From: Gammaproteobacteria bacterium
GTDB lineage: Bacteria; Pseudomonadota; Gammaproteobacteria; Ga0077536
Assembly (NCBI GenBank): GCA_020845935.1
Contig: JADLEV010000046.1
Coordinates: 379-64,378 of the forward strand
Length of the DNA: 64,000 nucleotides
Direction of reading: 5' to 3'
Within the stretch, counting starts at the first letter, position 1. Each line of letters opens with the position of its first letter. This document shows, one piece after another, positions 1-50,717 of this stretch. The position numbers and the translations under genes were made by a program. Below the pieces are notes generated by a model. The model searched no databases and was not told where the DNA came from. It saw nothing but the letters and a program-made list of their open reading frames with translations.

Positions 1-507
1 GGCCGAGGAGAGTGTGCCCATCGTCGCAAGCAGATCCGCAGCACCCGTGTAGGCGACCACCGTCATGTCGGTGTCTAAACTGGAGGAGGCGTCTGGCCAG
101 CCGATCGCAACCTCAGTCAGCGCAACCGCCTGGTTAAACACGAACAGGATAAATTCATGCGCCCCGTCGTTATCGATCGCATGATTCGGCGAGTAGTCTT
201 CATTTGCCGCATTCGTCGAACTAGCCGCCGTTTTCGCTTTCACACCCAGGTCATAAGCCGAATACAACTGCAGCCCGTTGTTGTATCCGGATTGCTGCTC
301 CCACAAGGCACTGGACGTACCGTCAGAGCCGTCCGTGTTGGCCCAGGCGGAGAGTGAGGACACGGTCACTGAGCCGAGACTGGTGTTGGTGTAGTTACTG
401 TCGGCGGTGTTCCATGTGAAGGAAGTCGCTGCCCCTGCGGCGCTTGAAATCGCCGCCAAGGAGACCGCCAAGACGGACTTAACAATCGATGTTTTTTTCG
501 TTTCCAT
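1..507 (-). CDS. Secreted protein, N-terminal part (gene runs off the window start); possible exosortase/PEP-CTERM-associated surface protein
   Basis: Own minus-strand translation gives METKKTSIVKSVLAVSLAAISSAAGAA..., a typical signal peptide. The frame stays open to position 1. RBS-like GGTGA lies upstream of the ATG at 505-507. It sits downstream of the PrsT-like TPR gene and behind a sigma-54-like promoter. Not in the supplied ORF track because it lacks a stop. Confidence 0.5.
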   Translation of the reverse strand, partial: METKKTSIVKSVLAVSLAAISSAAGAATSFTWNTADSNYTNTSLGSVTVSSLSAWANTDGSDGTSSALWEQQSGYNNGLQLYSAYDLGVKAKTAASSTNAANEDYSPNHAIDNDGAHEFILFVFNQAVALTEVAIGWPDASSSLDTDMTVVAYTGAADLLATMGTLSSA

Positions 508-551
508 GATTTCACCACTCATACGTTAGGTTCGGATGCTGACGATAACAA

Positions 552-567
552 GGCAAGTATCGCGCCA
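552..567 (-). promoter_or_regulatory. Candidate sigma-54 (-24/-12) promoter TGGCGC-N5-TTGC
   Basis: The minus strand reads TGGCGCgatacTTGCC about 45 nt upstream of the ATG at 507. It matches consensus TGGCAC-N5-TTGCW with one mismatch. It is embedded in an AT-rich region (approx 480-660). Confidence 0.45.
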
Positions 568-642
568 TCTATAAATTATATTTTAATATTCAATTGGTTA
601 TATACATCTACTGCAAAACCATTCGGCCTATTCAGGGTGATC

Positions 643-660
643 TGTAAAGTCGCTTGACAA
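643..660. promoter_or_regulatory. Repeated 18-nt motif TGTAAAGTCgcTTGACAA (copy 1), imperfect dyad; candidate activator or operator site
   Basis: Seen directly. A near-identical copy (16/18) occurs at 937-954. Half-sites TGTAAAG and CTTGACA are near-inverted. It lies about 80 bp upstream of the -24/-12 element. Confidence 0.4.
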
Positions 661-936
661 CATGGTCCCGAATGACCGGATTATTGTCCTGCACCTGAGG
701 GTCCGTCGACTCCGGGAGCCCATTCGGTCGTGCCCACCCACTTTCTCCACAGCGAAATCGCCCGCCACGGCGTCACCAAGGCAAAGACACTAACTTGAGA
801 GTACCGCTGTCATGCAGATCCTGGGGCGGATTTGAATCGTGAGTTGCGCAGAGATTGCTGAGGCACCTCAATCCCGCCCCGTACCCTTGAATTCAACCCG
901 TATGTATGGCTGACCCAACGTCCCTTTCTGCAAATT

Positions 937-954
937 TGTAAAGTCCTTTGACAA
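937..954. promoter_or_regulatory. Repeated 18-nt motif TGTAAAGTCctTTGACAA (copy 2)
   Basis: Second copy of the same motif, just downstream of the TPR gene stop (969). Confidence 0.4.
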
Positions 955-968
955 TCGGCGCAATCAGG

Positions 969-3827
969 TCAGCCGCCCAATTCTTCGCTCAGCCGTAAGG
1001 CATCGCCCCTGCCGTCGAAATCCTGCCCAGTTTCGAGTGCCGCTGCGAGTTCCGTGCGGGCCTCTGCACCACGGCCTTGCTTGTGCAGGGCGACCGCCAG
1101 GTGATACCGAATCTCCGGAATGGTCGCGGCGCGCGTCCGCGCTTCCCGCAAATAGCGCAGACCTTGCTCTCCTTCGCCGCGGTTCACCAGGATCCACCCG
1201 AGCGTATCGTTGACATAGGGATTGTCCGGGACGGCAGCGTAAGCTTTCTGGGCGAGCGCCAGCGCGCCATCCGGGCTTTCCAGCTTCAACAACACGTTGG
1301 CGAGATTGTTCATTGTCGGTACGTGATCCGGCTGCAATTTCAGGAATTCCTCGAACCGGGCCTTGGCGACTTGATAGCGTCCGACATGCATCGCGTGTTC
1401 ACCGAGCGCACCTTTTATCCAGGCGGCCTGCGGATATCTCTTTTGCCATTCCTCCAGCAATCCGGCGGCGGCATCATTCTCGCCCGCCGCGCGCAATGCC
1501 AAATGCCGTTTCAGCGCCAGGTCGGGCACATCCTGTTTCGCCACGGCCATCGCCTTCGCGAAATGTTGCACGCCATTGGCTGGCTGACCGCGCGCGATTT
1601 CCACGTCACCCAGCAGTGCGTGGCCGGCGAATTGGTCTGGGAAATCACGCGCCAGACCTGCCGCAAGTTCACCGGCTGCATCGAGGTGCGCCAGGTTGAG
1701 CTCCACTTCAGCCAACCCGAGTCGGGCCGCGAAACTGTCGGGCTGGCTTTGCACTGCCTTGAACAAGGTATATTGCGCATCGCTCAGCAGATTGCCACGC
1801 CGTTGCAGCGCCGCGATGCGTAACAGCCAGTCGATGTCGGACTGTGCCTGATCGGCCATGCGCTTCAACAGGGGGCGCATCTCACCGAACTTGCCTTCAG
1901 CGCCCAGGATGTTGACCTCCGCTTCCATGACATACAGGTTGTTCGGATGGAGCTTGTCCTGATTCCATGCCAGGTCGTGCGCACTCTTGGAATCCTTGTT
2001 CGCGACGTGCTGCTCGATAAGAAAAAGCGCGATTTCAAAGGATTCCGGCGCCACCTCCGCCGCACCGCGACCCAGCTTCAACGCATTCTTGAGATCACCC
2101 TTGGCGGCAAAGGTCCGGGCGAGTTCCAGCAGCAGTTGCGCATCGTTCGGCTTCTTGCCGAGCAATCGATTGAAGCGGCGCTCAGCGGCATCGAATTGAC
2201 CTTCGCGTCGATCGAGCTTGCCGAGATTGAGCTCCGCCGGCTGATAGGCGGGATCGCGTGCCAACGCCCTGTCGAACAACGCGCGCGCCTCACGAAGCTT
2301 GCCGAGACCGATGTTGGCGACCCCCAGCAGGTTCATGTAGGTCAGGTTGTCCGGGTCGTCCTGGAGAAGTTTTCCGGCAACGTCCGCGGCGGCGGCATAG
2401 TCGCCGCGGTTCATCTGCATGATCGCCAGAGGCAGCCCGGCAATCTTCTGATACTCGTCGTGCGAAAAGATCCTGGCCAGGTCGCCAAGCGCGGTATCCA
2501 TCTGTCCACGCTTGGCGCGGGAAATCGCCAGGTCGGTCGCCAGCCTCGGATCGTTCGGACGCAACGTGGCGGCGCGCTCCAATGCGGCCGTCGCCCGCGG
2601 GTGTTCCTCCGCGCCGGTATATGCTCGCGCCAGGATCACAAGCAATTCTGGCGATTCTCCAGCGAGGTCAATCACTTCCTCGATGAGCTTGGCAGCGCGT
2701 CGGTGATCGCCCTGGCGCATCAGCACGGTCGCCAGCATCTTTCTCGTCTCGATTTCGTCACCTGCCGACTTGATGTATTCCTCCAGGTAAAGCTTGGCCG
2801 CTTCCCGGTTGTCGAGCGTGTAATTGATTACGCCCGCGATCAACAGCAACTGCGTATTGCGCAACACGATTGGCCGGCCCATCGCCTCCAGAATGTTGGC
2901 CGCTTCGTTCAACGCGGCACGCGCACCGTGCTCATCGCCGGCGCGGGCCAGTTTCGTCGCGCGTAAATAGGTCAAGCGCGGATCGCTGCCGCCCTTTTCG
3001 GCGAGATATTGCATGTCCTCGTCGGTTTCCTGGTCGCGCCCAAGATCGAGCAGCAATCCGAGCCGCGCGAGTCGCGCGTCGCGGTTCGACGGATCCAGCT
3101 TGATAACCTCGGCGTAATCGGCCAGCGCCTGATCTCTGTTGTCGCGAACATGATTCAGCGAAGCCCTGGTCAACCAGACCGTCGGATTGTTGGGTGCCGT
3201 GCGCGTCGCCCGCTCGAGATATCGTTCCGCTTCATCCAGCCGTCCATCTCGCATCGCAACGGTTGCCTTGATCGACAACGCCGCGATGGCGTTCGGATCG
3301 ATCCGGTCGATCTCGTCGAGGATCTGACGCAGCGTTTGTTTGTCGTTGATTTGCAGCGCGGCTTGCGCCTTGACCTCCAGCCATTCCGCGCGCTTCATCA
3401 GGGGCAGCCGAGCCGGCAGTGCCTGGGCGACGAGTTGGTCCTGCTTGAATTGCAGCAGGTATGCCTTGGCGAGCGGTACCGCGGTCAAGGCGACGTCGGC
3501 ACCGGACTGCGCCGCCTCGTTCAGCGCGGTTTCCGCCGCTGCGCCGTTACCCAGTTCGAGGTAGGCCTCGCCCATCAGCACCATCGCGGGCAGCATCCGC
3601 GGGTCCTGTTGCAATGCGTTTTTCAGTTGAATGATGGCGCCATCGAAATCCCTGGTTGCCATGCGCGATACCGCATCCTCGTAGTAGCTACTGGCGCGGG
3701 CGCTTTCCGACTTGGGAGGATCGGCAGCGCGGACTTCGCCACCCGCCGTGACAAGGCCAAAGGCGAACAGCGTACTGAGGAGCAGCGCGCGCGCGCGACG
3801 AATCCTGGACAGCAAACGATGGATCAT
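969..3827 (-). CDS. Large TPR-repeat protein with signal peptide; resembles PEP-CTERM system TPR-repeat protein PrsT
   Basis: 952-aa ORF. N-terminal signal peptide MIHRLLSRIRRARALLLSTLFAFGLVTAGGEVRAA, followed by more than 20 recognisable TPR units (repeated AxxxxxALxxxP / YxxLGxxY patterns). Size and architecture fit the PrsT family. Confidence 0.7.
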   Translation of the reverse strand: MIHRLLSRIRRARALLLSTLFAFGLVTAGGEVRAADPPKSESARASSYYEDAVSRMATRDFDGAIIQLKNALQQDPRMLPAMVLMGEAYLELGNGAAAETALNEAAQSGADVALTAVPLAKAYLLQFKQDQLVAQALPARLPLMKRAEWLEVKAQAALQINDKQTLRQILDEIDRIDPNAIAALSIKATVAMRDGRLDEAERYLERATRTAPNNPTVWLTRASLNHVRDNRDQALADYAEVIKLDPSNRDARLARLGLLLDLGRDQETDEDMQYLAEKGGSDPRLTYLRATKLARAGDEHGARAALNEAANILEAMGRPIVLRNTQLLLIAGVINYTLDNREAAKLYLEEYIKSAGDEIETRKMLATVLMRQGDHRRAAKLIEEVIDLAGESPELLVILARAYTGAEEHPRATAALERAATLRPNDPRLATDLAISRAKRGQMDTALGDLARIFSHDEYQKIAGLPLAIMQMNRGDYAAAADVAGKLLQDDPDNLTYMNLLGVANIGLGKLREARALFDRALARDPAYQPAELNLGKLDRREGQFDAAERRFNRLLGKKPNDAQLLLELARTFAAKGDLKNALKLGRGAAEVAPESFEIALFLIEQHVANKDSKSAHDLAWNQDKLHPNNLYVMEAEVNILGAEGKFGEMRPLLKRMADQAQSDIDWLLRIAALQRRGNLLSDAQYTLFKAVQSQPDSFAARLGLAEVELNLAHLDAAGELAAGLARDFPDQFAGHALLGDVEIARGQPANGVQHFAKAMAVAKQDVPDLALKRHLALRAAGENDAAAGLLEEWQKRYPQAAWIKGALGEHAMHVGRYQVAKARFEEFLKLQPDHVPTMNNLANVLLKLESPDGALALAQKAYAAVPDNPYVNDTLGWILVNRGEGEQGLRYLREARTRAATIPEIRYHLAVALHKQGRGAEARTELAAALETGQDFDGRGDALRLSEELGG

Positions 3828-4035
3828 GACGATTCGGACTCCGATTTATCAGCGCTACGATGCTACCAATCGCCTGCCCATCGCCACCCTTTTGACAAAA
3901 ATTCATCTGCGCCGGCTCCGCCGAGCGGGCAATGACCAACCCGGCGCCCCTAGCTGCCCGGAAGCCGCCGGGCTGCTACGATGCCTGTTCCGTGTTCGCG
4001 CGGTATCGATTTCACCCAACCGACAGGCGACCGTC

Positions 4036-8500: not shown

Positions 8501-9419
8501 CCCCGGCGTGCTGTCGGCGGCATTGCGGCATCTGCGCGTCGTGCCACGCGAATTGCGGCAGCGATCGGCGATCGATCCCCGGCGGCTACCGGAGTTCGCG
8601 GTCACCTGCGATGACTTCAGATTCGGGGACATCAAACTCGGCGCGGCGAAATTCAGCGCGCATCCAGACGCGAACGGGCTGGTGGTCGACAGCCTGCAAT
8701 TGCAGGCGGCGGTGTTTGCCGCAAGCGCCTCCGGCCGCTGGTCGTTCGACGAACATGGCCATCGTTCCGAGGTCAGCGTCACGCTGACCGGCGATGACCT
8801 GTCCGGTCTGCTCGGCGCTTTTGGCTACCAGACCGGTGCCATCGAGGGGGGTGCCACGCGTTTCGAGCTCGCCGCCACCTGGCGCGGATCACCGGCGCAG
8901 TTCGCGCTGGCGGAACTCGACGGCGCGCTGCGTCTTGCGGTGGACCGCGGCCGTCTGCTCGATCTGGAACCGGGCGGCGGCCGCCTGTTCGGCCTGCTCA
9001 GCATCAACAATCTCGGCCGGCGCCTGCTGCTCGATTTCGGCGATCTGTTCGGCAAGGGCTATTCATTCAATGCCATGAGCGGCTCGTTCCGCCTCGAAAG
9101 CGGGCATGCCTATACCAGCGACTTCACCGTACTCGGACCGAGCGCGCGGATTGACATCGCTGGCCGAATCGGTCTGGTCGCCAGCGATTACGACCAGCGC
9201 ATCACGGTCACGCCGGAAGTCTCCGGTACCTTGCCGCTGGCCGGCGCGTTGTTCGGCCCGGCCGGGATCGGTGTCGGCGCCGCGGTCTATCTCGGGGAAA
9301 AGATCTTTCGCTCGATCCCGGAGACTTTCGACAGCCTGCTCAAGCGCGAATACGCGCTGACCGGCAGCTGGCAGGAGCCGGTACTGGAGCGCATCCAGTA
9401 CGCTCAGTCGGACAGGTGA
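5571..9419 (+). CDS. yhdP: YhdP family (AsmA-like) inner-membrane-anchored envelope lipid transport protein
   Basis: 1282 aa, a single N-terminal TM helix, then a long soluble beta-rich body. Positioned immediately downstream of rng, the conserved rng-yhdP arrangement. Confidence 0.75.
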   Translation: MRLDRLLRLAALASAALLVAAAILVTAARVLLPRLDDHPEAISLWASRIAGVPLTIEKVSASWRGALPRIELSGIDIHYAEDATPVRLEHAGIQIRPLASLLRLQPVPATLLLEGIRLTVERLEDGRLHVTGAALEETDRDGAGAAFARWLLARDDVRIQAARITWIDRQRGATPLLLRDADLRLRNEGGRHAVRIYLRPASAPGAEAQLLAKIEGDPLSEQWHGWMRLTGASLPLAEIARSLGLEDVRAAGAVTLAIDSFWRAGALQQAHGKVSGQELQFGTLNLTTAQGTLALARDDSGRTSIALRDLTWYRDGQRLPPAAIDLAWQQDGPSLRHLLGKIDLLPLRELSEMLEPARLPPNARTLLAGGSAGGEIRDLEFGYFPAAAGAADYYVSGRFHDLALPGDGARFPRVSGLAGTFTLRRDGGELQLRSAAARLHASGALLADMPLTGIDAAVRWRRDADTWVIMLPLLHVAAAGLPVTGEGMLRLGDGAPHLDLRATLGAGDLSVLPRLLPTRLLSERTEHWIRRALASGRITAGNIIWRGPVARQALDDPAAHVEARLAAADLTLDFSPRWPPLERSAVEVAIEGRRLAASISTGRLLGGEIRQAAIEIADLLAAERLLTIQGQAQGTAAAALNIIRASPLRDGALARLEELEPAGTVGLDLTLAIPLHPGSRSELHGTAHLSDIRLRVPSSRIALAALHGAIAFTRDEWHGEQLAASYDGLPVSLSGRSERDDPKFSMRVTMRGTGDGDFLRSQLARHLDPVYRRLARTDRLGALHGETTWQARLLVPRRNATGPLGPTEVQIESDLAGLAIDLPHPLAKDAAISRPLSLRIRLPGSDGPRHVQVRYGSDVWAEFEARDGDPPDGGLRRAAILLGPGEAPFPDRPAVLIRGRTERLSLDDWWALLSGNGTATTTATGRLPVDLDLVAGEATLIGQRFGNLHLEGGGTAGGWQIEVASPDLSGRFAMTGDPGVLSAALRHLRVVPRELRQRSAIDPRRLPEFAVTCDDFRFGDIKLGAAKFSAHPDANGLVVDSLQLQAAVFAASASGRWSFDEHGHRSEVSVTLTGDDLSGLLGAFGYQTGAIEGGATRFELAATWRGSPAQFALAELDGALRLAVDRGRLLDLEPGGGRLFGLLSINNLGRRLLLDFGDLFGKGYSFNAMSGSFRLESGHAYTSDFTVLGPSARIDIAGRIGLVASDYDQRITVTPEVSGTLPLAGALFGPAGIGVGAAVYLGEKIFRSIPETFDSLLKREYALTGSWQEPVLERIQYAQSDR

Positions 9420-10522
9420 GGTTGCGCCAGATACTCGTGCGACTGCATTTCGATCAGCCGGCTCACCGTACGCTGAAAGCTTGGCCGCAGGCGGGTGCCA
9501 CCATACAACGCCGCCGGCGCTACCTCCGCCGAGCAGATCAGCGTGACGTTGCGATCGTAAAACTCGTCGATCAGATTGATGAAGCGGCGCGCGGCGTCGT
9601 CATCGACCTCGCCGAAGCGGCGGACTCCGGAAAGCAGCACGGTATGGTGCCCGCGCGCTATCTCGATGTAGTCGCCGGCCGCGCGCGGACCGCCACACAG
9701 AACGTCGAACTCGAACCAGATGACGCCTTCGGTGCGCAACACCACCGGAATCGGCCGACCTTCGATTTCGATCGGCTCGGCGCTCGGCGAGCGGTCGCGC
9801 GGTGCCAGCTCGGCGAACGTTTCGAGCAGCGAATCGTGCGCGGCGGCATCGAGCGGTGCGTGATAAATCTCGGCGTGTTGCAGTGCCCGCAGCCGATAGT
9901 CGGTCGCGCTGGCAAGCTCGACGACCGCCATGTGCCGCTTGATTGCCTCGATCGCCGGCAGGAAGCGGGCACGCTGCAAACCACCCGCATACAGGTTGTC
10001 CGGCGGTTCGTTCGAGGTGGCGATGACCGTGACCCCTGCGGCGAACAGCCCTTCGAACAGACCGCCGAGTATCATCGCGTCGGCGATGTCGCCGACGTGA
10101 AACTCGTCAAGACACAGCACGCGGCACGAGGTTGCCAGTTGTGCGGCCAGCAGCAACAGCGGATCCGGTTGTTCCGGCAGGTCCCGCAGCGCCGCATGCG
10201 TTTCCCGCATGAACCGATGGAAATGAACGCGGCGCTTGTGCGGCAGTGGCAGCGTCGCGAAGAACAGATCGACCAGCATGGTCTTGCCGCGGCCAACCCC
10301 GCCCCACAGGTACAGACCAGGCACGATGCGCGTCACCGGCTGCCGCCGCAGGCGCTGCCAGAGACTGGGACGCGCAGCGGTCGCGACCAGCAATTCCTCG
10401 TGCAGACGCTGCAACCGTTCGACCGCGGCTTCCTGCGCCGGGTCGCGCAGAAAATCCGAGCCGGAGCAGAGCTCGCGATAACTTTCCCGTGGCGTCGTCA
10501 TGGCAGGCCGGTGGCGGCTCAT
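9404..10522 (-). CDS. zapE: Cell division protein ZapE (AFG1-family ATPase)
   Basis: Walker A GVGRGKTMLVD, Walker B CLDEF, and AFG1/ZapE-like blocks (VTVIATSNEPPDNLY). Start assigned to MSRHRPAM; the upstream extension is probably not real. Confidence 0.75.
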   Translation of the reverse strand: MSRHRPAMTTPRESYRELCSGSDFLRDPAQEAAVERLQRLHEELLVATAARPSLWQRLRRQPVTRIVPGLYLWGGVGRGKTMLVDLFFATLPLPHKRRVHFHRFMRETHAALRDLPEQPDPLLLLAAQLATSCRVLCLDEFHVGDIADAMILGGLFEGLFAAGVTVIATSNEPPDNLYAGGLQRARFLPAIEAIKRHMAVVELASATDYRLRALQHAEIYHAPLDAAAHDSLLETFAELAPRDRSPSAEPIEIEGRPIPVVLRTEGVIWFEFDVLCGGPRAAGDYIEIARGHHTVLLSGVRRFGEVDDDAARRFINLIDEFYDRNVTLICSAEVAPAALYGGTRLRPSFQRTVSRLIEMQSHEYLAQPHLSD

Positions 10523-10585
10523 CTTTGGTCGAAGGCGCGCATTATCGGCGATTCCGGGACACGGGCAGTGACGGCATAACAGCGG

Positions 10586-14316: not shown

Positions 14317-14346
14317 ATCGATTTCCTTCGTGCCCTCAGGGTCTTG

Positions 14347-14991
14347 TCAAATCCGTGCCGCGACGCTGGTCATCACGCGCGCCGACAGCCGCATCAATTC
14401 GCGCAGCCAGCGCGGCAGTTCCGCCGCGCCGTGCGCCAGTGCGTTGGTCGCATGGCGCGCTTCGTCTTCGCGCATCGCCGCGATGATCGCGCGACTGCGC
14501 CCGTCGGCCGAAGGCAACCGGCGCAGATGTCCTTCGAGATGGTCGACGACCTGGCGCTCGGTCTCGGCGAGGAAACCGAGGCTCCAGCGATCACCGGCCA
14601 AACTCGCCAATCCACCAATGGCCAGAGACCCGGCCAGCCAGAACAGGTTCAGCCGGCTGGCCCGGGTACCGAGTTCACGCAAGCGCTGCTGACACCAATG
14701 GAGGTGATCGCTTTCCTCATCGGCCGCCTGCTGCAGCGCCGCGGCAACCCGGTCATTGCGCGCAAACGCCGCCTGCCCGACATAGAGCGCCTGGGCGCAG
14801 ATCTCACCGCTATGGTTGACCCGCATCAGCCGCGCCGAGCGTTGCCGTTGTGCCGCCGGAAGGTCCGTCGCCGCTTCCTCTCCGGCCGGGTTCGGGCGCT
14901 CCGGCGCGCTCGCGTCGAGCCGCTCCGCATGCAGCCGATCGAGGCACAGCACCAGGCGATCAAGCCGTGTCAGCCTGCGCGCGGCCGTCAC
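14347..14991 (-). CDS. coq7: Demethoxyubiquinone hydroxylase Coq7 (di-iron carboxylate)
   Basis: MRVNHSGEICAQALYVGQA and EExDHLxW motifs characteristic of COQ7. Confidence 0.8.
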   Translation of the reverse strand: MTAARRLTRLDRLVLCLDRLHAERLDASAPERPNPAGEEAATDLPAAQRQRSARLMRVNHSGEICAQALYVGQAAFARNDRVAAALQQAADEESDHLHWCQQRLRELGTRASRLNLFWLAGSLAIGGLASLAGDRWSLGFLAETERQVVDHLEGHLRRLPSADGRSRAIIAAMREDEARHATNALAHGAAELPRWLRELMRLSARVMTSVAARI

Positions 14992-15100
14992 GGCGCATTG
15001 CCTCTACTTGAAAAACCCTTTGGATTGACAGCCTTGCGGTCGATCCGTACCATTGCGCCTCCCGAAATCGGTCCCAACGCCGTCCACGTTGTCATTGAAC

Positions 15101-15529
15101 ATGAAAACCTACACTGCAACACCTTCGACTATCAAGCGAAGCTGGTTCGTCATCGACGCGAACGGCAAAGTACTCGGCCGCATGGCGACCGAAATTGCGC
15201 ACCGCCTGCGTGGCAAGCACAAGCCCGAATACACCCCTCACATCGACACCGGTGATTTCATCGTCGTCGTCAACGCGGAGAAGGTTCGGGTCACGGGCAA
15301 CAAGCTCCGCGACAAGCTCTATCACCGCCACTCCGGCTATCCCGGCGGCCTGAAGACCACCTCGCTCGGCAAGATGCTGCAAACGCATCCGGAGCGGGCG
15401 ATCGAAATTGCGGTCAAGGGCATGCTGCCGAAGGGTCCGCTCGGTCGCGCGATGTTCCGCAAACTGAAAGTCTATGCCGGCGCGACGCATCAGCATCAGG
15501 CACAGCAGCCGCAACCTCTGGAAATCTGA
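15101..15529 (+). CDS. rplM: 50S ribosomal protein L13
   Basis: [65 protein letters not shown] at 15101 within ORF 15053..15529. Confidence 0.9.
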
Positions 15530-16488: not shown

Positions 16489-16562
16489 TGGGGGCTCGTC
16501 TAACGGTAGGACAGCGGACTCTGACTCCGTCAGTCGAGGTTCGAATCCTCGGCCCCCAGCCA
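16489..16562 (+). tRNA. tRNA-Gln (anticodon CUG)
   Basis: Manually folded. U1-A72 acceptor pair, 7-bp acceptor stem (TGGGGGC/GCCCCCA), anticodon loop CU-CUG-AC, T-arm CGAGG-TTCGAAT-CCTCG, discriminator G and encoded CCA, all typical of bacterial tRNA-Gln. Confidence 0.85.
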
Positions 16563-40929: not shown

Positions 40930-42774
40930 TCAATCCCCGGAAACCCCGCGACCGCGACGCCGCGGCTCCTCGCCGCGCTCGTCACCGGAATTTTTGGCCG
41001 GCGCTTCGGCTTGCGGTACGGCTTTGGGCTGCGGCACCGGAGGCCGGTAGGCCGGCGGTGCTCCAGCCGGCGCGGCCCCACGCGTCCGCGCCGCCCCCTG
41101 ATCCGCATCGCGCCGGGTCGCGTCGCGCCAGGCGCGGTTCACCGTCCCCGGGGTGCGCTCGCCGGCCGCGGGTGCCGGAACCACGGCAGGCGCTGCTGGG
41201 ACGGGCGTGTCGCGGCGCAACTCGCGCCCACGACTGCGATCGGCATCCGGTGATGCACCGGCACCGGCCCGCTGGCGAGCGGCCGGTTCGGCCGGCGGTT
41301 GCGCACTTGGTGCCGGCTCGCGTGCCTCGAAGGTGCGGACGCTGGCCGCATTCGAGCCGGGCGCGCGACGGCGATCCGCCTCACGCTGGTCCGGCTCACG
41401 CGCGCGTTGTTCGGTGTCGCGCAGCCTGCGGGTTTCGATGCGCGTCGTCGGCAACGTCGGCTCCCGCGACTGCTCGATGGCGTTCGGCGGTGGTCGCCGT
41501 GCTCCCGCGTCATCGCGTTCATCGGAGGTGCGCCAGGCGCGGTTGAAACCGTCGCCGCCGTCACGGCCTGGGTCGGCGTTGCGACCGGCATCGGTTCCGC
41601 GGCGATCCCCGTTGCGCCGATCGTTATCGCGATCCCGATCGTCGTCGCGTCTCCAGTCCCGGCCACTGTCCCGGTCCCGATCACGATTGCCGTCGTTACG
41701 GTCGCGGTTCCAATCCCGATCGCTGTCCCGGTCCCGATCACGATTGCCGTCGTTGCGGTCCCGGTTCCAATCCCGATCGCTGTCCCGGTCCCGATCACGA
41801 CTGCCGTCGTTGCGGTCGCGGTTCCAATCCCGGTCGCGATCCCAGTCGCGATCATCCCCACGGCCGCGATCGCGGCGATCGAAGACACGGACCGTCACCG
41901 TGCGCCGCTGCACCGGATAACGGTGGGGTCGATCGAACGTCGTGTAGCGCCAGGAGGAACCGAAATACGGGTGGCCGATGTTGTCGTTGAAGATCAACCC
42001 GAGGCTGAACGTGGACCAGCCGATCGAGAAGTAGCTGCTCAACCCCCAGAAGAAATCCGTGCCGAAGGCGTAACCATCGGGATACGGGTAGTAATAGACC
42101 GGGAAGGACCGAGGGTAATAGGCCATCACCGGGCGGTTGTGCCGGACGAAAATCATGGCCGGCTCATAGCGCGGCACGTAAATTACGGCGGGGTTGACTG
42201 GCCGGATCACGATCCCGGCGCGCGTCCGTTCGACCCGCTGATAAGAGTCGCTGGCAAGATTTCCGGCGGCATAGGCGCGTGACCGCACGCGTTGGGCCGC
42301 CGCCATCACCGCGGCCTGACGTACCACCACCGCTTCCCCGAGTCGCCGTGTCCAATCGATGTCGGCGGCCAGCAAGTGCAGCACTTCGGGATAGTTGAGC
42401 AATGCCAGGATCGCATCGTCCCAGTCCGGATTGGGCGCCAGGGCAGGATCGATTTCGAGCTCTTCCAGATAGCGCGCCGCCTCCGCAAGCTGCCCCGGCG
42501 AGCGCGCCGCGGACAGTACCACCGCGAGCAGGTCATCGGGATAGAGCGCGATCGGCGCGACCAGATCATCGAGATACGAATCGGTTGCGACATAAGGAAC
42601 CGTTGCGTTGTCACCGTCGGGCCCCCTCAGCACGGTGCCGACCGCGAACGGATCCTGGGCAACAACCGCGGTCACTGAACCCAGCTGCGAGCCGAGGATT
42701 GCCGACAGCGCGAGGACAACCGTCCGCCAGCGCGATTTCCGCGGCAACCGTGGCAAGTGATTACGCTCGGTCAT
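40930..42774 (-). CDS. DUF3300-domain secreted protein with D/R-rich tandem repeats and a long disordered Pro/Ala/Arg-rich tail
   Basis: Signal peptide. IALYPDDLLA...LNYPEVL blocks typical of DUF3300. Then RDRDWNRDRNDGxRDRDRDS x3, followed by a low-complexity C-terminus. Confidence 0.65.
   Translation of the reverse strand: MTERNHLPRLPRKSRWRTVVLALSAILGSQLGSVTAVVAQDPFAVGTVLRGPDGDNATVPYVATDSYLDDLVAPIALYPDDLLAVVLSAARSPGQLAEAARYLEELEIDPALAPNPDWDDAILALLNYPEVLHLLAADIDWTRRLGEAVVVRQAAVMAAAQRVRSRAYAAGNLASDSYQRVERTRAGIVIRPVNPAVIYVPRYEPAMIFVRHNRPVMAYYPRSFPVYYYPYPDGYAFGTDFFWGLSSYFSIGWSTFSLGLIFNDNIGHPYFGSSWRYTTFDRPHRYPVQRRTVTVRVFDRRDRGRGDDRDWDRDRDWNRDRNDGSRDRDRDSDRDWNRDRNDGNRDRDRDSDRDWNRDRNDGNRDRDRDSGRDWRRDDDRDRDNDRRNGDRRGTDAGRNADPGRDGGDGFNRAWRTSDERDDAGARRPPPNAIEQSREPTLPTTRIETRRLRDTEQRAREPDQREADRRRAPGSNAASVRTFEAREPAPSAQPPAEPAARQRAGAGASPDADRSRGRELRRDTPVPAAPAVVPAPAAGERTPGTVNRAWRDATRRDADQGAARTRGAAPAGAPPAYRPPVPQPKAVPQAEAPAKNSGDERGEEPRRRGRGVSGD
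41668..41838. repeat. 3 x 57-bp perfect or near-perfect tandem repeat inside the DUF3300 gene
   Basis: Units start at 41668, 41725 and 41782 (gtcccggtcccgatcacgattgccgtcgtt[a/g]cggtc[g/c]cggttccaatcccgatcgct), with 2-4 substitutions between copies. Confidence 0.85.
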
Positions 42775-42964: not shown

Positions 42965-44866
42965 ATGCCGCTGGTCACCCTCGACGATATTTCGCTGGAC
43001 TTCGGTGCCGTACCGATCTTGCGCCATGCGCAACTCGTGCTCGAACCGCAGGAGCGCGTCTGCCTCATCGGCCGCAATGGCGCCGGCAAGTCGACGCTGC
43101 TGAAGATCATCGCCGGCGAGCAAGCAGTCGATGCCGGTGACATCATCTATCGGCAGGACCTGAGGATCAGCGTGTTGGCACAGGCATTGCCGACCGAACT
43201 GGACTTGACCGTGCGCGATTATGTGACCGGCGGCCTCGCGCATCTGCGGCAACTGATCACCGACTACCATCACTGCGCCGCGGCGGCAGAGGGCCCGGGC
43301 GCGCTCGCGGAACTGGCGGCATTGCAGCGCCGGATCGATGCCGAAGGTGGCTGGCACCTCGCGCAGCGGGTCGAGACGGTGCTGTCGGAACTCGACCTGC
43401 CGGAGGACCGTCGGCTCGGTGAATTGTCCGGCGGCTGGCAGCGGCGCGTCGGTCTGGCGCGGGCGCTGGTGTCCAACCCCGAACTGCTGCTGCTCGATGA
43501 ACCGACCAATCATCTCGACCTCGCGACCATCGAATGGCTCGAAGCGCGGATCCGATCGTTTCCCGGCAGCGTGCTGTTCATCACCCACGATCGCGCGCTG
43601 TTGCAAGCGCTGGCAACGCGCATCGTCGAACTGGATCGCACCCGGCTGACGAGTTGGCCCGGCGATTATCGGAACTTCCTGCGCCGCAAGGCGGAATCGC
43701 TGCATGCCGAGGATCTCGATCGCGCCTTGTTCGAGAAGCGCCTCGCCGCCGAGGAGGAATGGATCCGGCAGGGCGTCAAGGCGCGGCGCACGCGCAACGA
43801 AGGCCGCGTGCGCGCACTCGAAGCGATGCGCGAGGAGCACGAGGAACGCAGCAGGCTCAAGCGGCCGCACGGCGCCAGGATCCACATCGAGGCGAGCGCC
43901 ACCGAATCGGGCCGCAAGGTAATCGATCTGCACCAGGTGTCGTACGGTTACGGCGCGACCCCGCTGATCGCCAATCTGACGCTGAAGATCCGGCGCGGCG
44001 AGCGCATCGGCCTCATAGGCAACAACGGCGTCGGCAAGAGCACCTTGCTGAATCTGATGCTCGGCTTGCTCGAACCACAGAGCGGCACGGTCAAGCTCGG
44101 CACCAATCTCGAGGTCGGTTACTTCGATCAGATGCGCCGCGATCTGGATCCGGAAAAGACCATCGCCGAGGTCGTTGGCGACGGTCGGGACTACATTCAA
44201 CTGAATGGTCGCGACCGCCATGTGATCGGCTACCTGCGCGGCTTCCTGTTCAGCGCCGAGCGTGCCAAGACGCCGATCAAGGCGTTGTCCGGTGGCGAGC
44301 GCAACCGGGTCATTCTGGCCCGGCTGTTCACCCGCGCGTCGAACCTGCTGGTGCTCGATGAGCCGACCAACGATCTGGATGTCGAAACCATGGAAGTGCT
44401 GGAGCAGAAGCTGATCGAGTATCCCGGCACCTTGCTCGTGGTCAGCCACGATCGCGCCTTTCTCGATCGCGTGATCACAAGCTCGCTGGTGTTCGAGGCG
44501 GGTGGAAAGATCGAGCGCTATCCCGGCGGCTATCACGACTGGCTGGCGCGCGGCCGCAAGCTCGCCGAAACCGACAACCCGAACAAGGTCGCACGCGCGC
44601 CGGAGCCAAAGGCGCCCGCGGGGACCGCGGCGCCCAAGAAACTCAGCTACAAGCTGCAGCGCGAACTCGACACACTGCCGACCCGCATCGGCGAACTCGA
44701 AAGCGCGATCGCGGCAGCGCAGCAGGAAAGCAGCGCCGCCGGCTTCTATCAGCGGCCATACGCCGAAGTCCAGGAGGTACTCGCCGCCCTGCACGCCGCG
44801 CAGCGCGAACTCGATGCCGCACTCGAACGCTGGGTCGAACTGGAGGCGTCGACCGCGGCGCGGTGA
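42965..44866 (+). CDS. ABC-F family ATPase (Uup/YheS-like, two ABC domains with coiled-coil C-terminus)
   Basis: MPLVTLDDISLDFGA...GRNGAGKSTLL, then a second Walker A GNNGVGKST. ATG at 42965 within the longer ORF. Confidence 0.8.
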   Translation: MPLVTLDDISLDFGAVPILRHAQLVLEPQERVCLIGRNGAGKSTLLKIIAGEQAVDAGDIIYRQDLRISVLAQALPTELDLTVRDYVTGGLAHLRQLITDYHHCAAAAEGPGALAELAALQRRIDAEGGWHLAQRVETVLSELDLPEDRRLGELSGGWQRRVGLARALVSNPELLLLDEPTNHLDLATIEWLEARIRSFPGSVLFITHDRALLQALATRIVELDRTRLTSWPGDYRNFLRRKAESLHAEDLDRALFEKRLAAEEEWIRQGVKARRTRNEGRVRALEAMREEHEERSRLKRPHGARIHIEASATESGRKVIDLHQVSYGYGATPLIANLTLKIRRGERIGLIGNNGVGKSTLLNLMLGLLEPQSGTVKLGTNLEVGYFDQMRRDLDPEKTIAEVVGDGRDYIQLNGRDRHVIGYLRGFLFSAERAKTPIKALSGGERNRVILARLFTRASNLLVLDEPTNDLDVETMEVLEQKLIEYPGTLLVVSHDRAFLDRVITSSLVFEAGGKIERYPGGYHDWLARGRKLAETDNPNKVARAPEPKAPAGTAAPKKLSYKLQRELDTLPTRIGELESAIAAAQQESSAAGFYQRPYAEVQEVLAALHAAQRELDAALERWVELEASTAAR

Positions 44867-44979: not shown

Positions 44980-46785
44980 ATGATTGAAAGGCACATCGGC
45001 GGCAGCTTCGTCGCCCGCGGTCTGTACCTCTTGCTGAGCTTGCAGTTCGGTTTCGCGCACGGTGCGCATGCCGACTTCACGGTCACCGGCAGCGTTGTCG
45101 ATGGCAACGGCAACCCGATAGCGCAGGCACAGGTGGTTTACCAGCCGCCGCCCGGCAGCGCCGGTGCCAGCGCCATCACCGTATTTGCCGATGCACAGGG
45201 CGAGTTCGCGTTTCCTCAGGCGTTCTCGGGAACACCCGGCGCATCGCTGCCGCTGGTCTCGCGTGCGCTCGGGTATGAGTACCGGACACAAGCGAGGAGC
45301 GGCAGCAATCAATCGCGCCCGCAGGTCACGTTGCTGATGGATCGGGTCGTCAATCAAGCCGCGGTCGCGCCGGCATCGGCATGGCTGCGGCAACGGATCC
45401 CGGAGCGGCAGCAGCAGTCGCAGTTCGTGATGGATTGCATCGACTGCCATCAGGTGCCGGCGCCGGAAGTGCGCGATTACGCCGCGGCGATCGCCGACAT
45501 GCACGCACCCGATCCGGCGGTGGCCCGGACGCAGAGCTGGCAGATGATCGTGCAGTACATGAATCGGCTGTCGGCCTGGGAGTTCTCACGCGGCAGTCGC
45601 AAGGCGGACACGCCACCGCAACCCGATGCGGTGTATTCGGTCAACAATGAGGACGCCGTCGCCGCGCGCCTGGCCGACCGCTTCGGTGATCGCCTCGAGG
45701 CAATCGAAGGCTATGCCTGGGGCGCCCCGCTGGCGGTGACGCCGCAGACCGCCATCTACGAATATGCGGTGCCGGAACCGAACGCGGTGCGGGAAGCGGT
45801 GCTGCTCGGCGGGCGTGCGCTCTGGGTCGCGGACGTGGCGACCAATCGCATGTACGAAATCGATATCGCCAGCGGCCGCCAGAAGATCCACGAGGCGCCG
45901 GTGGACGTGCCGATCGGCCCACATTCGCTGCACCGTGCCGCCGATGGCGGGCTGTGGGTCACGCCGCTGTTCAATAACGTGCTCAGCCGCATCAATCCAG
46001 CCAGCGGCGAATGGCGCACCTGGATGGTACGCGACGAGCGCGGCCGAGGCGCCGGCATCCATGATTTGAGCTTCGGTCACGACCATGAACTATTGACCGA
46101 CGCCAGCGGCCGCATCTGGTTCTCCGACATCGGCAACAACGGCGTCGGTTACCTCGATCCGAAAACCGGGCGCACCGAGCTGTTCGCCGCGCCGCCGGTG
46201 CCCGGCCGGGAGAACGAACCGGCGATGCTGTATGGCCTCATCATGAACAAGGCGCGCAACCAGATCTGGTACAGCCAGCTCGGCATCGGTGCCATCGGTG
46301 GCTTCGACATCGACCGCCAGCAGTTCTTCGAACCGATTGCGCTGCCGGATCCGAACTCCGGACCGCGCCGCATCACCATCGACGATGCCGACGTGATGTA
46401 CGTCGCGTTGTACGGCGGCGGCCAACTGCTCGAATTCGATTTGAACACGCGGCGCATCATCGGTGCCCATGACCTGCCGGATACCGCGAGCGCGCCCTAT
46501 ACCGCGACCTGGGATCCGGTGCGCAAGGTGGTGTGGATCGGTACCGCGAACGGTGACGTGATCTATCGCTTCGATCCGAAGACGAAAGGCTTTCAGGTGC
46601 TGCCGTTGCCACGGACCCGGGCGTTCCTGCGGATGATCGACATCGATCGCGCGACCGGTGTCCTCGTGACCTCCTATGCCAACATCGTCGAACTGGTGCA
46701 GGGTCCGCGCATGGCTGTCATCATCGATCCGGGCGACAATGTCTACCCGCAACGCTTCGCACCGAACGGGGAGACACGGCAATGA
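44980..46785 (+). CDS. Secreted protein: N-terminal carboxypeptidase-regulatory-like domain, a CxxCH haem c motif, and a Vgb/SMP-30-like six-bladed beta-propeller
   Basis: GGAGG RBS. Signal peptide MIERHIGGSFVARGLYLLLSLQFGFAHGAHA. TVTGSVVDGNGNPIAQAQVV Ig-like fold. CIDCH motif. Repeated propeller blades (LWVTP, IWFSD, IWYSQ, VWIGT). Confidence 0.55.
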   Translation: MIERHIGGSFVARGLYLLLSLQFGFAHGAHADFTVTGSVVDGNGNPIAQAQVVYQPPPGSAGASAITVFADAQGEFAFPQAFSGTPGASLPLVSRALGYEYRTQARSGSNQSRPQVTLLMDRVVNQAAVAPASAWLRQRIPERQQQSQFVMDCIDCHQVPAPEVRDYAAAIADMHAPDPAVARTQSWQMIVQYMNRLSAWEFSRGSRKADTPPQPDAVYSVNNEDAVAARLADRFGDRLEAIEGYAWGAPLAVTPQTAIYEYAVPEPNAVREAVLLGGRALWVADVATNRMYEIDIASGRQKIHEAPVDVPIGPHSLHRAADGGLWVTPLFNNVLSRINPASGEWRTWMVRDERGRGAGIHDLSFGHDHELLTDASGRIWFSDIGNNGVGYLDPKTGRTELFAAPPVPGRENEPAMLYGLIMNKARNQIWYSQLGIGAIGGFDIDRQQFFEPIALPDPNSGPRRITIDDADVMYVALYGGGQLLEFDLNTRRIIGAHDLPDTASAPYTATWDPVRKVVWIGTANGDVIYRFDPKTKGFQVLPLPRTRAFLRMIDIDRATGVLVTSYANIVELVQGPRMAVIIDPGDNVYPQRFAPNGETRQ

Positions 46786-47099
46786 AACCGACCTTTCTGG
46801 AACGCACGCTGCTTGGCGCGACCCTGATGGCCGTCGCGGCCACGGCCGCCGCCGATGCCGCGCTCGCCGAGCGCAAGTTCTGTTTCTCCTGCCATCATGC
46901 GACCGAAACCGGGCTCGGGCCGTCGTTTCAGGCGATCGCGGCGCGCCACGGCGCGCGCCGCGCACAGATGGCGCCGGTGCTGGCGTACAAGATCCAGCAC
47001 GGTGGCGGCGGCAACTGGGGCGTCGTGCCGATGGTACCGAGCCAGAACGTGTCCGAGGCCGATGCCACGGCACTCGCGCGCTGGATTCTTGGTCTTTAG
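46782..47099 (+). CDS. Class I mono-haem cytochrome c (c551/c552-like)
   Basis: Signal peptide. CFSCH haem site. Distal Met region GVVPMVP. Start overlaps the upstream stop (ATGA). Confidence 0.8.
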   Translation: MKPTFLERTLLGATLMAVAATAAADAALAERKFCFSCHHATETGLGPSFQAIAARHGARRAQMAPVLAYKIQHGGGGNWGVVPMVPSQNVSEADATALARWILGL

Positions 47100-47110
47100 G
47101 GCAGCGAGCC

Positions 47111-48175
47111 ATGATGGCTCCCAAGGCGCGCCAGCCACACCGGCATCACCGCACGCCCGTGCCGTCATGGTGGCGCCTGGTGGGAGTCATTGGTGCGCTG
47201 CTGACGACTTCAGTCGTACAGGCCGAAGACGCCACGTCGTCGGCTCCGGTTGCCGGTTGCGGCACCAGCAACTCCGGGGACGCCGCCTGGCTCGATCGCA
47301 TGCGCGGGAAACTGACCGAAGCGACCTGCACTTCGGCCCGCTGGTTCGATGGTCTGTTCGGCACGCCGCACGATTACGATGCCTACCGCGGTACCTATGG
47401 CAGCTTTTCGGTCGGCACGCTGTGGGATGAGTATGACGGCTTCGATCCGAAAATCCGCTTCAAGGCGCGGCTGCGCCTGCCGCAACTGAATGGGCGCTTG
47501 AATGCCTTCATCGGCCGGGTCGACGAAGACGAGTTCGTGACCGGAACGCTGAATCAGTTCGATACGTTGCCGGATCAGTTCCGCGATCTCAATGACGCGA
47601 AATTGCTGGTCGGCCTCGGCTATTCACGGCCGGGACTGGCCGGTCAGATTGATGTCGATGCCGGCGTCCATGTCGACATTCCACTCGATCCCTACCTGCG
47701 CGCGAACTACCGTCGCGCCTGGGCGCCGGCAACCGATGTCGTGATACGGTTCCGGCAAAGTGCGTTCTGGCAGTATGTCGACGGGGTCGGCACGTCGTCA
47801 AAGGTCGATGTCGACCTGGCGCTTGCCGAGCATCTGTTGCTGCGCACCTCCGGCCTCGCCAAGGTCGCGGAAAAGGTCGATGGCGTGGAATGGAACTCGA
47901 AGCTGACGCTGTATCACGAACTCAGCGCAAAGGATGCACTCGCCTATCAACTTGCCGCTGACGGCGAGACCGGCCGCGCGGTGCCGCTGCGTGATTACGG
48001 CGTGCGCATCATCTATCGCCGCCAGTTCCTGCGCGACTGGCTGATCCTCGAACTGCGCGGCGGGATCGGCTGGCCGCGCGAATTGATCACGGACCAAAGG
48101 GAATTCAATTGGGGGCTCGGCGCGGCGCTGGAGATGCGCTTCGGCGACTGGCCGAGCCTGCGACCGATGCAGTAA
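47111..48175 (+). CDS. Secreted hypothetical protein, possibly outer-membrane beta-barrel
   Basis: ATG at 47111 inside ORF 46676..48175. Signal peptide WRLVGVIGALLTTSVVQA. Alternating hydrophobic pattern over about 330 aa. No assignable family. Confidence 0.45.
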   Translation: MMAPKARQPHRHHRTPVPSWWRLVGVIGALLTTSVVQAEDATSSAPVAGCGTSNSGDAAWLDRMRGKLTEATCTSARWFDGLFGTPHDYDAYRGTYGSFSVGTLWDEYDGFDPKIRFKARLRLPQLNGRLNAFIGRVDEDEFVTGTLNQFDTLPDQFRDLNDAKLLVGLGYSRPGLAGQIDVDAGVHVDIPLDPYLRANYRRAWAPATDVVIRFRQSAFWQYVDGVGTSSKVDVDLALAEHLLLRTSGLAKVAEKVDGVEWNSKLTLYHELSAKDALAYQLAADGETGRAVPLRDYGVRIIYRRQFLRDWLILELRGGIGWPRELITDQREFNWGLGAALEMRFGDWPSLRPMQ

Positions 48176-50212: not shown

Positions 50213-50348
50213 GGACCTCGGTCTTTGCCCCGGCTCTTGCAGGCGATGATGCGCGATGGCCGCGGACAGCGTCAACCAGAGGCAATGACGACACGGTTGA
50301 CGCGGTGACGGCAATCGCTGATAAAGATGGCCCCGGCTGGAATCGACC

Positions 50349-50717
50349 ATGCGCTACTGGTTGTCATTGATATCGTTGACTCTGGTCAGCCTGCCGGCCC
50401 CGGCCGCGCCGACCGGCGCGGATCTCGAACGAGCCTGCAGCGCGGCGCTGCGGGACGGTTTCAGCACCGGACCCGGTCTGGCGTGCCTTTGGTACGGTAC
50501 CCCCTGTGCGTGCGACAAGTCCGCATCCCTGACTGCACGCCCGCAGAGCTGCCCACCCCCAAACCTCGACGAGAGGATCCGCGCGCAGGTGCTCATCGAT
50601 GGCTTTGCCGCACGCCCGGAGTTACGCGAATCGCCAGTGGAAGATGCCGTGGCGACGCTTTTTGCCGAGCGCTTTCCGTGCACCGAGAGCACCGCGAAAC
50701 CGCAGCCGCCGGAATAG
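50349..50717 (+). CDS. Small secreted Cys-rich protein (7 Cys), hypothetical
   Basis: Signal peptide MRYWLSLISLTLVSLPAPAAP. CxxC-like PCAC motif. High-GC codon usage. Confidence 0.45.
   Translation: MRYWLSLISLTLVSLPAPAAPTGADLERACSAALRDGFSTGPGLACLWYGTPCACDKSASLTARPQSCPPPNLDERIRAQVLIDGFAARPELRESPVEDAVATLFAERFPCTESTAKPQPPE

Follow-up and report, generated by a model that had tools for sequence, protein, structure and literature searches.

What turns on the gene of a predicted exosortase-sorted surface protein is the question raised by the left end of a 64,000-nucleotide stretch of DNA from a Gammaproteobacteria bacterium (contig JADLEV010000046.1 of assembly GCA_020845935.1, positions 379 to 64,378), referred to here as the window. 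Two minus-strand genes delimit the region of interest: prsT (969-3827), which encodes a 952-amino-acid TPR-repeat protein of the XrtA/PEP-CTERM system (TIGR02917), and the gene for XDP1 (1-507), an exosortase-dependent PEP-CTERM surface protein of which the 5' part (169 codons) is present, the remainder continuing past the left end of the window. The 461 nucleotides (nt) between them (508-968) very probably form a PEP-CTERM box promoter, enhancer-dependent and of the sigma-54 class, which would depend on the response regulator PrsR, integration host factor (IHF) and sigma-54 and would serve an exosortase substrate.

Haft, Paulsen, Ward and Selengut (2006, BMC Biol 4:29; PMC1569441) described a module of this type in the upstream DNA of 99 of 167 proteobacterial PEP-CTERM genes. 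It consists of motif 1, a sequence of 17 nt with the 3' end TTTACA that is sometimes repeated and was predicted to be the PrsR site, and motif 2, also of 17 nt, which displays the -24 GG / -12 GC pattern of sigma-54 promoters and is located 23-221 nt from the start codon. The spacer between the 3'-most motif 1 and motif 2 measures 32-92 nt (mean 62.8), and more than 200 nt of non-coding DNA are found upstream (PMC1569441). In Aquincola tertiaricarbonis RN12, the expression of pepA needs RpoN and its transcription start was mapped downstream of a TGGCAC...CTGCTT promoter, the enhancer being still in need of more experiments (PMC9850573, 2023). For Zoogloea resiniphila MMB, the work summarised in PMC9012009 showed that PEP-CTERM genes of the pepA type need RpoN together with PrsK/PrsR.

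The identity of the two flanking genes was established by comparison with protein family models. The XDP1 gene opens at the minus-strand ATG at 507 that had been proposed for it, in a frame that leaves the window; in the NCBI model of this protein the start is placed 5 codons further upstream, at 522. The partial product matched the first half of the XDP1 profile (NF041927) with E=2.5e-19, and a protein search retrieved the full-length product, MCC6202441.1 (284 amino acids, 100% identical; P0121 hereafter), from a Gammaproteobacteria metagenome-assembled genome. P0121 scored 148.6 bits on the XDP1 model (cutoff 125) and 22.1 bits on the PEP-CTERM model TIGR02595 (cutoff 16), and its C-terminus, GVPEPTTLGLFGLGLVGLRYAKRFRK, contains VPEP, a hydrophobic helix and then RYAKRFRK. 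As both scores are above the respective cutoffs, the prediction made from sequence alone that the body of this gene, lying outside the window, would encode an exosortase substrate with a PEP-CTERM tag was correct. Comparison of P0121 with the PepA model (NF033554) gave no match at E<=0.01, and two orthologues of P0121 reached only 22-24 bits on that model (cutoff 80). The upstream gene, which had been described as PrsT-like, encodes a PrsT protein: it scored 489.5 bits on TIGR02917 (cutoff 312.2) over profile positions 21-898 of 899, is 100% identical to MCC6202442.1 and has its stop codon at 969-971.

Within the intergenic region two copies of a short dyad were detected, as the sequence-only reading had claimed, at 643-660 (TGTAAAGTCGCTTGACAA) and 937-954 (TGTAAAGTCCTTTGACAA, both given for the plus strand), with 16/18 positions identical. 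Each is an imperfect dyad (TGTAAA-N5-TTGACA) in which 5/6 positions are complementary, and on the transcribed strand the 18-mers read TTGTCAAGCGACTTTACA and TTGTCAAAGGACTTTACA, with the form TGTCAA-N5-TTTACA. The similarity of the two copies reaches over 21 nt (18/21 positions identical), their starts are 294 nt apart, and they define a proximal activator site (640-660, minus strand TTGTCAAGCGACTTTACAGAT; 17-nt core TGTCAAGCGACTTTACA at 643-659) and a distal one (934-954, minus strand TTGTCAAAGGACTTTACAAAT; 17-nt core TGTCAAAGGACTTTACA at 937-953). Only these two matches to the 18-mer were found in 64 kb even when 3 mismatches were allowed, 0.02 being expected, and none of 100 shuffles contained two copies. 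When the window was scanned with a weight matrix derived solely from other loci (10 copies of motif 1), the distal site ranked first among 127,960 positions (32.2 bits) and the proximal site second (27.5 bits), the next best position scoring 9.9. The distal site, which is the best match to the consensus, begins 14 nt after the prsT stop codon. Both copies resemble the predicted site of PrsR, whose NCBI name, "PEP-CTERM-box response regulator", derives from the PEP-CTERM box.

Downstream of the proximal 18-mer and separated from it by 75 nt (568-642) lies a predicted sigma-54 -24/-12 element (TGGCGCGATACTTGCC, 552-567, minus strand), with GG at 565-566 and GC at 553-554. As previously noted for this DNA, it departs from TGGCAC-N5-TTGC by one mismatch (TGGCGCGATACTTGC at 553-567 on the minus strand, with the following C at 552). 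It precedes the ATG at 507 by 44 nt and the alternative ATG at 522 by 29 nt, and transcription is predicted to start near 541. The sigma-54 pattern by itself is not enriched in the 64-kb window, with 6 matches vs 5.5 expected; this frequency is at the level of chance and, therefore, the element at 552-567 takes its weight only from its context and position. A search of 400-1100 for a sigma-70 promoter or an intrinsic terminator produced one weak match of each, equal to the expectation from shuffles, and both were discarded. Elsewhere in the window a perfect TGGCAC-N5-TTGC is present at 43176-43190 (plus strand), inside the coding region of uup (ABC-F ATPase); this match has no activator motif nearby and was taken as chance.

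The context that gives weight to these elements is conserved in related organisms. Eight prsT-XDP1 intergenic spacers, including those of L001, L002, L004 and L125-L128 among the loci traced from PrsT homologues (44-72% identity), were compared, and in every traced locus prsT is followed by an XDP1-type PEP-CTERM gene encoding 264-316 amino acids. Motif 1 (consensus nTGTCAAtGGAnTTTACA) occurs in 8/8 spacers, its TTTACA end and the first base of the prsT stop codon being 29-45 nt apart (29-36 nt in seven of them), and GG-N10-GC with TTGC (GGC-N7-TTGC) is likewise present in all eight, 42-95 nt before the start codon. The distance from the proximal motif 1 to the promoter is 74-76 nt in 7/8 spacers and 53 nt in L128, while the sequence between the conserved elements is not alignable. 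The enhancer/IHF/sigma-54 architecture proposed earlier for this region was thus borne out as far as its sequence elements are concerned, their positions being kept in the orthologous loci.

Several observations were made in the course of this comparison. In the 8 orthologous and 13 metagenome loci, the spacing of the proximal motif 1 and the -24 element falls into three classes (52-53, 63-67 and 73-77 nt); the steps between classes approximate one helical turn and may point to a face-of-helix constraint between enhancer and promoter. The prsT-XDP1 pair behaves as a portable two-gene module in differing housekeeping neighbourhoods: rng/yhdP in the window, soxYZ-hpcH to thiL-nusB-ribH in L004 and L125-L128, and anmK to an Fe-S biogenesis gene in L002. 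L001, the closest relative, has prsT-XDP1 in one cluster with the genes for an XrtA-associated acyl-CoA ligase (TIGR03098) and an XrtA-associated decarboxylase (TIGR03099), 4.2 kb (five genes) downstream of these two. The prsT-XDP1 spacer of L004 (9150-9523) contains a run of N with an identical 55-nt sequence on either side; this run is an unmerged assembly overlap and no real gap, and the merged spacer has the canonical 75 nt.

The association between the composite element and PEP-CTERM genes extends to metagenomes. A metagenome scan with the pattern motif 1, 50-80 nt, GGC-N7-TTGC retrieved 36 stretches with 24 distinct complete downstream open reading frames (ORFs), 11 of which match PEP-CTERM family models (9/24 match TIGR02595 itself). 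Considering that PEP-CTERM proteins constitute a very small share of proteins in general, this represents a large enrichment; most of the remaining matches, for example those beside pdxH- and hisC-like genes, look like chance. In two of the metagenome loci (L142 and L149) the box precedes homologous proteins with a common N-terminal IPGLA..DP.LVNPWG, the complete one being a 401-amino-acid PEP-CTERM protein, which indicates that the same box serves PEP-CTERM families beyond XDP1 and PepA. Motif 1 alone (TGTCAANNGANTTTACA) was scanned against a genome collection, and almost all of the at least 120 matches listed were non-proteobacterial and chance-like, with GGC-N7-TTGC within 110 nt in only 2/120 of the listed matches.

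The protein that binds the dyad deserves separate consideration. In the sequence-only reading the 18-mer was presented as an unrecognised PrsR-like binding site: the PrsR-like part of this proposal agrees with our data, as the motif corresponds to the published predicted PrsR site in length, TTTACA end, repetition and spacing and is kept in 8 orthologous loci, while "unrecognised" does not hold, the motif having been published in 2006. The assignment to PrsR is based on phylogenetic co-occurrence and on Zoogloea genetics rather than on a footprint, and none of the 19 larger window ORFs that were scanned proved to be prsR; it might accordingly be imagined that the dyad is occupied by a repressor, or by some sigma-54 activator different from PrsR, and that the link to PrsR is no more than correlative. 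This alternative is improbable in view of the fact that motif 1 was assigned to PrsR because, across 13 proteobacteria, its phylogenetic profile was an exact match to that of PrsK, PrsR and PrsT (Haft et al., 2006; PMC1569441), that PrsT adjoins the site here, and that a dyad with 11-bp half-site spacing fits a Fis-type helix-turn-helix dimer.

Between the proximal activator site and the promoter an IHF-like site, ATTCAATTGGTTA, was detected at 588-600 on the plus strand, opposite to transcription, with 12/13 positions matching WATCAANNNNTTR. It is located 20 nt upstream of the -24 element; the 20 nt that separate the two (568-587) are 90% A+T and adjoin the WATCAA half of the IHF-like core on its 5' side. 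The ATTCAA-N4-TTA pointed out in the earlier reading is therefore present, and its positional conservation supports it as a predicted site. At the corresponding place the IHF consensus is found with no mismatch in L125, L128 and L004, with one in L126 and with two in L127 and L002, and is absent from L001. The comparison was extended to 21 PEP-CTERM boxes, comprising the 8 orthologous spacers and 13 unrelated boxes from the metagenome scan (L133-L163): a match with at most one mismatch at offset 18-21 and on the same strand occurred in 13 of them, whereas shuffled sequences averaged 0.10 and never exceeded 2 (0/2000 shuffles reached the count). In a column profile anchored at GG, a block aA....tTGAt stands out 21-33 nt before the GG, and its place is the same for enhancer spacers of 53, 64 and 75 nt. 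IHF was not mentioned in the 2006 description (PMC1569441), and in a literature search pairing PEP-CTERM with integration host factor neither term appeared in the title or abstract of any matching paper. The putative IHF-like site at a fixed position across 21 boxes would represent one small addition to the literature, and the claim is a modest one.

The second peculiarity of this region is the wide separation of the two activator sites by a lineage-specific insert of 276 nt (661-936). It had been thought that the stretch between the two 18-mers is AT-rich; these 276 nt are, instead, 56-61% GC, and the AT-rich tract (34-35% GC vs 65% window-wide) lies at ~501-650, between the promoter and the proximal 18-mer. 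The insert holds a 13-nt inverted repeat (GGGGCGGATTTGA / TCAATCCCGCCCC, 823-835 / 868-880) with a 32-nt loop and no T-run on either strand. No second copy of 661-936 was found in the window or in L001-L004, it is unrelated to the sequences that fill the corresponding position in L127 and L128, and it contains no ORF of note and has no similarity at the protein level to any of 125 fetched proteins. Several origins or functions were considered for this segment and rejected. Its interpretation as a repeat, a pseudogene or a duplicated promoter is at odds with the lack of a second copy or protein similarity and of a GG-N10-GC at the expected distance after the distal site. A structured RNA on the minus strand of 660-968 was dismissed because the fold is no better than that of shuffles (z = +1.1), and Rfam gave no relevant match in region 1-4000 even at E up to 1. 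A tRNA or attachment-site remnant around the inverted repeat at 823-880 was likewise discarded, the only tRNA detected by ARAGORN in the window being a tRNA-Gln (16489-16562).

The repeats that flank the insert could in principle be the product of the insertion itself, that is, 21-nt duplications generated by a mobile element (661-936) with no regulatory role, and the foreign composition of the 276-nt segment and its inverted repeat might be invoked in favor of this idea. It is very improbable because orthologues carry the motif in the absence of the insert: every orthologous spacer has it once or twice, and it also occurs before unrelated PEP-CTERM genes in metagenomes. Furthermore, the segment shows no transposase or terminal inverted repeats, nor a second copy in the window or in the related loci.

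Among the orthologous loci, the two motif-1 copies are exactly 53 nt apart in L004, L125 and L126, a single copy is present in L001 and L002, and the split copies are separated by 152 nt in L128, 176 nt in L127 and 294 nt in the window, with fillers unrelated to each other. In every locus the distal copy stays beside the prsT stop codon and the proximal copy holds its distance to the promoter, which makes an insertion of ~241 nt between two formerly adjacent sites the simplest history.

Whether the distal site still operates after this split is a matter on which the evidence is divided. It is possible, though doubtful, that function is confined to the promoter, the IHF site and the proximal activator site, and that the distal 18-mer (937-954) is a stranded remnant of a 53-nt pair split by the 241-nt insertion. 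Such a remnant would be consistent with the contrast between the intact 53-nt pairs and the split versions with their unrelated fillers, with the degeneration of the distal copy to TGTTAAGCCTGCTTTACA in L127 and L128, and with the single copy that suffices in L001 and L002. Conversely, the distal copy of the window is closer to the consensus than the proximal one (32.2 vs 27.5 bits), which argues for continued selection or a very recent insertion, and enhancer-binding proteins of the NtrC type can act by looping from several hundred bp. An interpretation that takes both peculiarities as functional, and which is somewhat short of an even chance, is that the PEP-CTERM box has a third component that had escaped description, an IHF site ~21-33 nt upstream of the -24 GG whatever the enhancer distance, and that the enhancer of this lineage also tolerates a 241-nt split, with the far PrsR site at about -400 acting by long-range looping.

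Based on these elements, a mechanism can be proposed for the prsT-XDP1 region, read as a PEP-CTERM box promoter. RNA polymerase containing sigma-54 would sit on TGGCGC-N5-TTGC (552-567, minus strand) as a closed complex, while the membrane kinase PrsK would phosphorylate PrsR, a response regulator of the NtrC family. PrsR dimers would occupy the dyad TGTCAA-N5-TTTACA at the proximal site, 75 nt upstream of the -24 element, and at the second site, 294 nt further up beside the prsT stop codon. Binding of IHF to its predicted site and the adjoining A+T tract, ~20-33 nt upstream of the -24 element, would bend the DNA, letting the PrsR oligomer contact sigma-54, and ATP hydrolysis would then open the promoter. 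The transcript, starting near 541, would encode XDP1, which would be exported by the Sec pathway and recognised by the exosortase (XrtA) through its C-terminal VPEP-TM-basic tag.

Promoters that combine an enhancer, an IHF site and a sigma-54 element are classical, and include those of nifH (with the TGT-N10-ACA sites of NifA), Pu of the TOL plasmid and glnHp2. In common with them, the window has dyad activator sites ~80-150 nt upstream, followed by a predicted IHF bend and then by a -24/-12 promoter; it departs from them in the dyad, which is TGT-N11-ACA (TGTCAA-N5-TTTACA), in the activator family, PrsR, and in the regulon, which consists of exosortase substrates.

The closest precedent is the PEP-CTERM box itself (Haft et al., 2006). 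The region analysed here reproduces its 17-nt TTTACA motif, repeated as in Rru_A3095, a spacer of 75 nt, the GG/GC sigma-54 element, a distance of 44 nt to the start codon, a long non-coding region upstream and, in one locus with prsT, a downstream PEP-CTERM gene. It differs in the unique GC-rich sequence that puts 294 nt between the motif-1 copies, and in the IHF-like site fixed in position between enhancer and promoter. With the pepA promoters of Aquincola and Zoogloea it has in common a PEP-CTERM gene that adjoins prsT, a -24/-12 promoter and a predicted enhancer upstream. In those organisms the dependence on RpoN was demonstrated by experiment, whereas here it is predicted, and the product here is XDP1 (NF041927) and not PepA (NF033554); in addition, pepA lies upstream of prsT in Aquincola, whereas the PEP-CTERM gene is downstream of prsT in the window. 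Altogether, the element is of a known kind, described in 2006, real but ordinary, and the IHF-like site and the split enhancer are minor refinements.

Some points weigh against this assignment. Both halves of the sigma-54 element depart from the consensus, the -24 hexamer by a G in place of A and the -12 element by TTGCC in place of TTGCW. Besides prsR, genes for PrsK, an exosortase, RpoN and IHF (ihfA/B) were also not found among the 19 larger ORFs scanned in the window, and the sole histidine kinase encoded there (48188-50350) reached only 97.8 bits on the PrsK model (cutoff 300) and is not PrsK. No relative has its distal site as far from the promoter as the ~370 nt seen here, and this site may be dispensable, since the distal copy drifted in L127 and L128, whose sites are also split. 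Finally, no biochemical proof of PrsR binding to motif 1 was found in the searchable literature (cf. PMC9850573). In spite of these points, the identity of the two flanking genes and the conservation of the elements in sequence and position continue to favor strongly a promoter of the PEP-CTERM box type.

Of the large ORFs scanned elsewhere in the window, 18 in number, none is related to the exosortase system; they include rng, yhdP, degP, uup, lpxC, ftsZ, ftsA, a few enzymes and transporters and some without a family match. The histidine kinase mentioned above, of 720 amino acids and encoded on the minus strand, contains a PAS domain and resembles the AtoS/ZraS-type partners of sigma-54 activators, although a gene for such an activator was not recognised next to it. 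Four ORFs, at 40930-42774 (minus strand, 614 amino acids), 46676-48175 (plus, 499), 9416-10579 (plus, 387) and 14344-15255 (plus, 303), have coding-like codon composition and gave no NCBIfam match at the thresholds used; some of them may be the wrong strand of overlapping ORF pairs.

For the annotation of this metagenome-assembled genome, the box marks the XDP1 gene as a target of PrsK/PrsR/RpoN and predicts that PrsK, PrsR, RpoN and XrtA are encoded elsewhere in it. The finding opens no new biological question. The IHF-like site would refine the model of the promoter, and a function of the insert, as a small RNA or a second regulatory input, would add novelty if true. The region represents a clean and well-conserved instance of the switch that turns on exosortase-sorted surface proteins, which take part in the formation of the floc and biofilm matrix in environmental Proteobacteria.

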